Positions 2,496 to 3,363 of a DNA stretch of 4,359 nucleotides are shown here, piece by piece; within the stretch, counting starts at the first letter, position 1; every line of letters starts with the position of its first letter. The stretch comes from a virus (Duplodnaviria > Heunggongvirae > Uroviricota > Caudoviricetes). A program made the position numbers and the translations under genes. Where the stretch lies: IMG/VR virus record IMGVR_UViG_2541047758_000009; one strand, 5' to 3'. The notes below the pieces were generated by a model. It had not been told where the DNA came from. It searched no databases and worked only from the letters and a program-made list of their open reading frames with translations.

Positions 2496-2505
2496 CCTTT
2501 CCACC

Positions 2506-2877
2506 TTAAGCCGCACGGCCATGTCTTGATTTGCTGTAACTAATGCGATTTTTCCAGTCATGCCATTCTGTCGGAGCTTCATCAACCAGTTGGGCTGCGT
2601 ACTTGTCCCACTCACGGCGATTAATCCATAATTCAGCTTTCCCTCTTGGTTTTAATGGGTCTGTCATGTAGAAGGCTGGCAGCTTTCCTGCTTTAGCCAT
2701 TTCAGCCACCGCGCGTGGTGTCTTACCGATGTAAAGAGCAAAACCCTCTTTCGACAGCAAATCTGATGGGCGCTCTGAAATCTGAATGCTTTTACGTTTG
2801 GCTTCATTTTCGAAACTTGCCTCATCGCTAGTTGGACAAGAAATTTCTACATTTGTCGTCACTTTGCTATCCTCCAT
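2506..2877 (-). CDS. cox: Cox-like excisionase / early-promoter regulator, 123 aa from ATG or 118 aa from the alternative GTG at 2862
   Basis: ORF track 2506..2877. The segment EGFALYIGKTPRAVAEMAKAGKLPAFYMTDPLKPRGKAELWINRREW resembles the P2 Cox DNA-binding core as I recall it. It is the first gene of the leftward operon and divergent from C, as in P2. The ATG at 2877 has no SD; a GTG at 2862..2860 lies 7 nt downstream of GGAGGA and is an equally plausible start. The conserved core is preceded by about 40 residues that P2 Cox (91 aa) lacks. Confidence 0.75.
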   Translation of the reverse strand: MEDSKVTTNVEISCPTSDEASFENEAKRKSIQISERPSDLLSKEGFALYIGKTPRAVAEMAKAGKLPAFYMTDPLKPRGKAELWINRREWDKYAAQLVDEAPTEWHDWKNRISYSKSRHGRAA

Positions 2878-2970
2878 AAGATTTGCGATTCACCAACTGG
2901 AGCCATCTAGAGCCTTTTTGAGTGAATCGCAAATTGCCAAGTAACAATATAATTGGAGATTAGCAAAATT
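2878..2970. promoter_or_regulatory. Divergent immunity switch region between cox and C, expected to hold the early and lysogenic promoters and the operator sites
   Basis: 93-bp intergenic spacer between divergent regulatory genes. It contains a perfect 13-bp inverted repeat, a central TCTAGA palindrome (2906..2911) and an AT-rich block with TATAAT at 2948..2953. TTGCGA, a -35-like hexamer, sits in each repeat arm pointing inward, consistent with face-to-face promoters. Exact promoter positions cannot be fixed from sequence alone. Confidence 0.5.
2881..2934. repeat. Perfect 13-bp inverted repeat, ATTTGCGATTCAC (2881..2893) and GTGAATCGCAAAT (2922..2934), separated by 28 bp
   Basis: Read directly from the sequence: the two arms are exact reverse complements. 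They are the only copies of this 13-mer in the window. Candidate operator pair or RNA stem. Confidence 0.9.
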
Positions 2971-3270
2971 ATGTCAAGTGAACAAAGTGAAAAACTAAAG
3001 CTCATCCGTGAATCCGAACGCCTTAAAACTAAGGAACTTGCTGAATTAATTGGAATTAATTACTACACATATCATGGATATGAATCAGGAAAATCAAAAA
3101 TGCCTATGGAAGCAGGTATGAAGCTGTTTAAGCATCCACGCTTTCGCAAGTATCGTGACTGGTTCATGTTTGATGAAACAGATCCAGCAGCTGGACAAAT
3201 AGCCCCGGCTCTCGCACACATTGGGCAAGACTCAACAACCTTGCACCACTCAGACCAAAAGACTGGCTGA
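2971..3270 (+). CDS. C: Immunity repressor, P2 C-type, 99 aa, helix-turn-helix
   Basis: ORF track gives 2953..3270 from a TTG. I prefer the ATG at 2971, which gives 99 aa and has GGAG at 2955..2958. The N-terminal region has an Xre-like HTH (TKELAELIGINYYTYHGYESGK). The C-terminal AGQIAPALAHIGQDSTTLHHSDQKTG matches the P2 C repressor tail as I recall it. It lies directly upstream of and co-oriented with int, as in P2. Confidence 0.85.
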   Translation: MSSEQSEKLKLIRESERLKTKELAELIGINYYTYHGYESGKSKMPMEAGMKLFKHPRFRKYRDWFMFDETDPAAGQIAPALAHIGQDSTTLHHSDQKTG

Positions 3271-3363
3271 CGATTTATTCAGCATATGTGTGCAGTAAAT
3301 GTACGAAAGAAAATTGCATTAATTTTCAAGTAGTAGAAGTAAACAGCGTCATCGGAGGGCTTT

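Follow-up and report, generated by a model that had tools for sequence, protein, structure and literature searches.

The stretch of DNA that we analysed, called the window from here on, is 4359 nt long and comes from a P2-like (Peduovirus) prophage, where it spans the immunity and early region. Its minus strand carries part of gene A, five small ORFs (four of which match orf80-83 of phage D8), B, an orf78-like gene and cox, and its plus strand carries C and int. The 801 nt from 2500 to 3300 are 99% identical to phages D8, 11W, 12W, P24E6b, pro483 and vB_YpM_46, and a search of 5426 complete E. coli genomes found the switch segment in 143. The two divergent genes of the switch are the following.

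2506..2862, minus strand: cox, a Cox family regulator/excisionase of 118 aa when read from GTG 2862 (Pfam Phage_Cox)
2971..3270, plus strand: C, the immunity repressor gene, 99 aa (match to P2 C)

Residues 26-106 of Cox match Pfam Phage_Cox with an E-value of 2.7e-29. The C protein is only 50.5% identical to P2 C, and this similarity (tblastn) runs across residues 1-99, that is, over all 99 residues; its match to Pfam HTH_19, at 24.6 bits, falls short of the curated threshold of 30.2 bits. With Cox, C and integrase, the window is a lysis-lysogeny switch of the P2 type: a divergent gene of the Cox family heads the early operon (cox-orf78-B-...-A), the repressor is a helix-turn-helix protein of about 100 aa belonging to the P2 C family, and, judged by sequence, an early promoter Pe points towards cox with its -35 hexamer at the C start codon. 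We found no experimental operator mapping for the immunity class of the window; up to 2007, experiments had located the operators of P2, P2 Hy dis and Wphi only (PMC1904268).

The first-pass annotation had described a mirrored block at the beginnings of cox and C, matching at 13 of 18 positions and forming an outer inverted repeat around the switch. Counted by eye, the 13 identical positions are indeed there, the reverse complement of 2860-2877 being ATGGAGGATAGCAAAGTG and 2953-2973 reading TTGGAGATTAGCAAAATTATG. In a repeat search the match could be extended, ungapped, to arms of 33 nt, and a second, inner repeat was recovered.

2844..2876, minus strand: cox-side arm of the extended outer inverted repeat (repeat search; no variable site among 32 same-class sequences)
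2954..2986, plus strand: C-side arm of the extended outer inverted repeat (repeat search; one variable site among 32 same-class sequences)
2881..2934, no strand: inner perfect 13-bp inverted repeat with arms 2881-2893 and 2922-2934, enclosing cox-box-like repeats at 2897-2925

The outer arms are identical at 24 of 33 positions (73%) around a centre at 2915, and the same search places the centre of the inner repeat at 2907.5; the two centres are offset from each other, as had been described. Two nulls were used to judge the outer match. When 2830-3000 was subjected to 500 dinucleotide shuffles and the inverted repeats were scored, 22% of the shuffles reached at least 13/18, 3.6% reached at least 14/18 and 0.2% reached at least 24/33. 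Because start regions resemble one another anyway in their Shine-Dalgarno sequences and A-rich codons, the second null consisted of the 820 pairs of start regions (-25..+25) from 41 genes of the sister phage D8. A score of 13/18 was reached by 3.7% of these pairs, and C-cox was the best of the 820 at the level of 33-mers, with 24 matches against 21 for the next best pair and a mean of 14.8 (sd 1.8), which puts it about 5 sd over the mean. We rejected the short match as significant, since it is common both in shuffles and in start-region pairs. The extended 24/33 match is beyond chance and the reported 13/18 match is not; the observation is thus stronger than first reported once it is extended, and weaker than was implied in its short form. 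As an outlier among start-region pairs, the 24/33 match makes coincidence an uncomfortable account of the whole 33 nt. Within the class, both arms together have one variable site in 66 nt, vs densities per 100 nt of about 7 overall and 13 in the centre, and this near-invariance fits roles in translation initiation, promoter and operator.

To see what each arm is made of, we compared the window with about 20 heteroimmune relatives (including pro147, S164, vB_YpM_115 and the IMG/VR loci L048-L094). On the cox side the relevant features are these.

2870..2875, minus strand: cox Shine-Dalgarno sequence GGAGGA (sequence reading; GGAG(G/A)A in most classes, GAGGA in several)
2863..2869, minus strand: cox spacer TAGCAAA, between the Shine-Dalgarno sequence and GTG; the cox-side copy of the heptamer
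2875..2877, minus strand: upstream in-frame ATG giving a 123-aa form, the start chosen in PGAP and in the D8 record; probably not the main start

Public records give four starts for cox, corresponding to 123 aa (D8, PGAP), 118 aa (pro147, vB_YpM_115), 65 aa (RefSeq P24E6b) and 128 aa (S164). The codon aligned with GTG 2862 is ATG in pro147, vB_YpM_115, L051, L061, L062, L067, L071 and L074, GTG in L057 and L077, and TTG in L048-L050, and the cox start codon of the relatives always lies 6-8 nt 3' of GGAG(G/A)A. The upstream ATG 2877, which overlaps the cox Shine-Dalgarno sequence and is itself preceded by no such sequence, is missing in most classes (L051, L057, L061, L062, L067, L071, L074 and L079). 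Read from GTG 2862, cox has the 118 aa annotated in pro147 and vB_YpM_115, and this comparison makes GTG 2862 the likely start, which would be of use where the records conflict. For C, the protein read from ATG 2971 is colinear with P2 C from Met1, residues 1 to 99, and the in-frame TTG 2953, which falls within the Pe -10 region, is not conserved as a start. The first-pass annotation had left two alternatives, upstream codons from which both proteins would begin alike or downstream starts preceded by a leader containing the Shine-Dalgarno sequence. The upstream codons are in frame and would give MEDSKV... and MEISKI..., as it said. They were rejected as starts by the relatives in the case of cox and by the alignment of C to P2 C at residue 1, and the shared M-E-x-S-K N-termini are not supported, given that neither ATG 2877 nor TTG 2953 is conserved as a start; the alternative that likely stands is the downstream pair, GTG 2862 and ATG 2971, each with its Shine-Dalgarno leader.

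The cox initiation block, GGAG(G/A)ATAGCAAA followed by the start codon, is kept in about 14 classes, across which the identity of the C proteins is 78-100%, and the spacer is TAGCAAA or TATCAAA in nearly all heteroimmune classes, whatever the type of C. The flanking N-terminal codons of cox and the intergenic centre diverge while the block stays. One locus, L051, has helix 3 of C and the operator slot as in the window, yet TATCAAA at the cox-side spacer. In these alignments the cox-side arm behaves as a conserved translation-initiation region and not as an immunity-specific site.

The C-side arm holds a larger number of elements, which overlap.

2955..2958, plus strand: C Shine-Dalgarno sequence GGAG, 12 nt 5' of ATG (the GGAGAT/GAGAT framework is kept across classes and in P2)
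2972..2977, minus strand: Pe -35 hexamer TTGACA, over C codons 1-3 (geometry as in the annotated P2 Pe)
2949..2954, minus strand: Pe -10 hexamer AATTAT, 17-nt spacer (promoter scan and P2 geometry)
2959..2968, plus strand: predicted C operator half-site O1, ATTAGCAAAA, containing the C-side copy of the heptamer (in the Pe spacer, at the position of the annotated P2 O1)
2940..2949, plus strand: candidate half-site O2, AGTAACAATA (AGTAGCAATA in the common allele), 19 bp from O1

With a position weight matrix (PWM), TTGACA-17 nt-AATTAT was the top minus-strand match in all 18 switches scanned, and the annotated P2 Pe was recovered. In the P2 GenBank record, the Pe -35 coincides with C codons 1-3 and is followed by O1, the -10 and O2, in that order. 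Because the offsets of the Pe hexamers match P2, the C Shine-Dalgarno sequence at 2955-2958 and TAGCAAA at 2961-2967 fall in the Pe spacer, at the position of P2 O1. The plus strand also has a perfect TATAAT at 2948-2953, 18 nt 5' of the C ATG, where it overlaps the complement of the Pe -10; a transcript from it would be without the C Shine-Dalgarno sequence, and it is probably a by-product of the near-palindromic Pe -10.

We compared the slot occupied by O1 across 80 IMG/VR loci whose C proteins range from 100% down to 78% identity. The framework CATATAATTGGAGAT ... ATGTCAA is kept across these loci, and the 8-9 nt inside it vary from class to class. Structure and alanine scanning have shown that P2 C recognizes its DNA through helix 3, residues 31-39 (PMC2995052), and P2-type C proteins bind direct-repeat half-sites, as known for P2, P2 Hy dis and Wphi (PMC1904268). 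Across classes the O1 slot follows the helix-3 residues of C: NYYTYH pairs with GATTAGCAA in five lineages and NYVTY with GATCTGAT in two, NYNTYA pairs with GATACGACAA, NYSSY with GATATGCGA and NYYSY with GATCTTCCAA. We infer that C binds 2959-2968. A direct repeat of the slot stands 19 bp upstream and is class-specific across 12 classes (loci L016-L079), with 5.08 matches of 10 within the own class vs 3.82 across classes (permutation p = 0.0006); in the window this partner of O1 matches at 7 of 10 positions, and in the common allele at 8 of 10. The resulting candidate O2 at 2940-2949 borders on the Pe -10, like O2 of P2, and such a pair is in line with the known operators. A half-site spacing of 19 bp is thus predicted for this clade of C proteins, vs 22, 26 and 34 bp in P2, P2 Hy dis and Wphi. 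We had also considered the right arm of the inner repeat (2925-2934) as O2, 34 bp from O1 as in Wphi. It matches O1 at 7/10 in the window and at 6/10 in the common allele, and at this spacing the class-specific signal is absent (2.83 own vs 2.75 cross), so that the 19-bp partner was preferred. These comparisons would provide predicted operator half-sites for the immunity class found in 143 of 5426 complete E. coli genomes, and the link between helix-3 residue 32 and the O1 slot in about a dozen classes offers a set of natural repressor/operator pairs on which changes of specificity in direct-repeat binders could be studied. With the cox start, these are the practical gains, which are modest overall.

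The organization of the switch can be set beside those already described. With P2 the window shares the gene order (int-C / cox-orf78-B), a C protein of 99 aa, a Cox-family protein, the TTGACA of Pe at C codons 1-3, and a 17-nt spacer with the C Shine-Dalgarno sequence inside it; the half-sites of P2, one within this spacer and the other across the Pe -10, have putative counterparts in the predicted O1 and the candidate O2 of the window. It differs from P2, besides the low identity of C, in the half-site (predicted ATTAGCAAAA here vs ATCTAAAC in P2), in the spacing of the half-sites (19 bp as predicted here vs 22 bp) and in its Cox, which is longer at the N-terminus by about 25 aa than P2 Cox and Pfam Phage_Cox and probably has a GTG start; no mirror exists between the start regions of P2, where the best score is 17/33. 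In Wphi, as predicted for the window, direct-repeat half-sites span the Pe -10 and TTGACA adjoins the C start (PMC1904268, PMC1904263), and Pc lies near the cox start, as the first of the two Pc candidates given below would in the window. The half-sites of Wphi are 10 bp long (GTCACCAATA) and 34 bp apart, the interval from the cox to the C start codon is about 150 bp vs about 108 bp in the window, and a mirror is again absent (17/33). More generally, operators of two half-sites span the Pe -10 in P2 and Wphi and the -35 in P2 Hy dis (PMC1904268). The heteroimmune Peduovirus relatives share with the window the cox initiation sequence GGAGGATA(G/T)CAAA and the CATATAATTGGAGAT, ATGTCAA framework, and differ in the O1 slot and in helix 3 of C, with a mirror that is absent or weak.

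To score the mirror across relatives, we reverse-complemented the region upstream and took its highest 33-mer match to the C start region. The score is 24 in the class of the window, 22 and 23 in its two nearest relatives (L048 and L049), and 16-20, which is background, in all other classes, including P2, Wphi, L-413C, YenM_42.18 and a Klebsiella phage. In this sample the mirror is confined to one immunity lineage and is effectively a single evolutionary observation. Among the heteroimmune relatives compared, we found neither joint conservation nor joint change of the two copies. The first-pass annotation had regarded the block as a duplicated 5' element allowing coordinated translational control, and had named its conservation in homologous switches as a check. 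The cox-side copy is kept across classes and the C-side copy is class-specific; as the copies are neither kept nor changed together and the mirror is at background elsewhere, the idea of a duplicated element under coordinated translational control finds no comparative support.

Every element of the mirrored region is of an already known kind, and we favour the explanation that the resemblance comes from stacked, separately constrained elements of these kinds rather than from any common control element. On the cox side, the Shine-Dalgarno sequence GGAGGA, the 7-nt spacer TAGCAAA, GTG 2862 and the first A-rich codons would form an ordinary initiation region. On the C side, the initiation region of C would be nested on the opposite strand within the core of Pe, so that C codons 1-3 are covered by the Pe -35 TTGACA, the C Shine-Dalgarno sequence directly adjoins the Pe -10, and the 17-bp Pe spacer carries the repressor half-site O1. 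The O1 of this immunity group would then simply happen to read TAGCAAA, the same as the cox spacer, and this identity, together with two Shine-Dalgarno sequences and A-rich early codons, could add up to 24/33. In the coding part of the arms the match is 12/19, for which A-richness is the sole explanation offered. We further infer that the identity of the heptamers has no function of its own. This explanation is probable, and our confidence in it goes no higher because coincidence accounts only loosely for the 24/33 outlier. We take the gene identities, the geometry of Pe, the conservation of the cox block and a class-specific C-side slot that varies with the recognition helix as established, at the level of sequence comparison.

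Of the alternatives, one starts from the location of Pc, the weak convergent promoter that tandem cox-boxes overlap in P2-type switches, and for which the following candidates were considered.

2853..2882, plus strand: first candidate Pc, TTGTCG (2853-2858), 18 nt, TAAGAT (2877-2882), inside the cox arm (PWM score 9.4)
2883..2913, plus strand: second candidate Pc, TTGCGA, 19 nt, TAGAGC, overlapping the cox-box-like repeats

The cox arm may hold Pc as the C arm holds Pe, each promoter spacer encoding the Shine-Dalgarno sequence and start of the other gene. We think this unlikely, and hold the corollary, that the similarity reflects the same stacked constraints on both sides, to be doubtful to the same degree. 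The first candidate is the best plus-strand sigma-70 match by PWM in the switch region of the window (9.4; the annotated P2 Pc scores 6.2), and the order of elements (-35, complement of the start codon, heptamer, complement of the Shine-Dalgarno sequence, -10) is the same in it as in Pe. The overlap of the Wphi transcripts is 82 nt, and 60 nt separate O2 of Wphi from the Pc start (PMC1904263); counted by us on the Wphi sequence, these distances put the Pc core beside the cox start. However, the -35 of the first candidate is lost in L049 and L050, its TAAGAT is missing from most classes, L057 and L061 among them, and the candidate as a whole is not kept outside the closest classes; a simple consensus promoter scan did not report it, and the annotated P2 Pc lies outside cox. 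The second candidate, with its -35 at 2883, is common to more classes, its position fitting TTGGCT/TTGATG ... TAGAGT in L071 and L074. Consensus and PWM scans gave no Pc position consistent across classes, and two candidates remain. Mirror promoters, even if real, would leave the identity of the heptamers unexplained.

That identity is central to another alternative, in which C, besides binding O1/O2 at Pe, also binds an inverted pair (2863-2869/2882-2888) over the cox initiation region and the Pc area. We consider this quite improbable, and no less so the suggestion that C, as the common factor which the first-pass annotation had imagined, would further block cox expression or autoregulate Pc. 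Four of the five TMGCAAA heptamers in the window fall within 2863-2967, the cox-side copy is an exact match to the O1 core, and from it to the inner left copy (2882-2888) is 19 bp, the spacing predicted for O1-O2. Both arms of the outer repeat are nearly invariant in the class, as a second operator would allow; for P2, four C molecules on the region have been considered, and the proximity of C to the polymerase at Pc has been linked to C autoregulation (PMC1904263). Against this, the left sites are kept in classes where O1 and helix 3 differ, and binding of C therefore does not explain their conservation. Moreover, L051, with helix 3 and O1 as in the window, has TATCAAA and GGCAAA on the left, L057 is without the inner left copy, and the known P2-type operators are direct repeats and not inverted sets (PMC1904268, PMC2995052). 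The full arrangement would be a C with two mirror-image operators, O1/O2 at 2940-2968 and the TAGCAAA-type pair at 2862-2890, each with 19-bp spacing; its chances are as slim as those of the pair itself, and we met no description of such an arrangement in the papers on P2-type C proteins that we consulted. If it were true, one repressor could clamp both ends of a switch of about 110 bp, by looping, as a roadblock to cox or through Pc autoregulation. The comparisons gave no signal for one common factor (C) on both copies, though C could bind both, and the mirror itself would matter only if C binds the cox-side copy.

Common descent would treat the similarity as the trace of a short inverted duplication or gene-conversion tract in the ancestor of the lineage, since eroded and functionless. 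The similarity does pass through non-motif positions into both coding regions (the 12/19 given above) and is confined to one lineage, with 24 in the class of the window, 22 in L048 and 23 in L049. An independent trace of conversion is absent, however, with neither flanking homology nor intermediate forms, and as the cox block predates the lineage, any conversion must have taken place on the C side. We regard this origin as very unlikely. Scarcely credible is the proposal of the first-pass annotation that GGAG-NN-TAGCAAA in both mRNAs is bound by one factor for coordinated translational control: the two leaders would share near-identical RNA segments of 13 nt and the C-cox similarity is a statistical outlier by shuffles and by D8 start-region pairs, but the pairing is not kept, heteroimmune relatives retaining the cox block with unrelated sequences on the C side, and the C-side block is accounted for at the DNA level by operator and promoter. 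No Rfam family was matched in 2700-3100. Pairing of the outer arms as RNA was set aside, because with the predicted Pe start at about 2942 the C arm lies outside the cox mRNA; in either leader, folding was confined to the inner repeat.

Several smaller features were recorded in and around the switch. Folding of either predicted leader gave a hairpin at the inner repeat (z about -2.9). Its perfect 13-bp form is a minority allele, the right arm being polymorphic among 34 same-class sequences: position 2929 is G in 4 of the 34 and A in 30, and position 2923 is T in 22 and C in 12. Between its arms lie three tandem repeats (2897-2925) with 10-bp spacing, CTGGAGCCA / CTAGAGCCT / TTTGAGTGA. The P2 cox-box consensus is TTAAA(G/C)NC(A/C), spaced 10-11 bp (PMC3936717); by their resemblance to it, the repeats are likely to be Cox binding sites. 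Related repeats are also found in other classes. In the Yersinia phage vB_YenM_42.18 (locus L007, about 470-610) the gene at the cox position and C both start with ATGTCAATC, so that TTGACA stands on the opposite strand at both start codons, and L048 has TTGTCAA at the cox start. Within C, codons 2-8 contain a tandem direct repeat of 9 nt, AAGTGAACA / AAGTGAAAA (2976-2993), and a terminator-like stem with a T-run at 3003-3020 on the minus strand, in the coding region, is probably due to chance.
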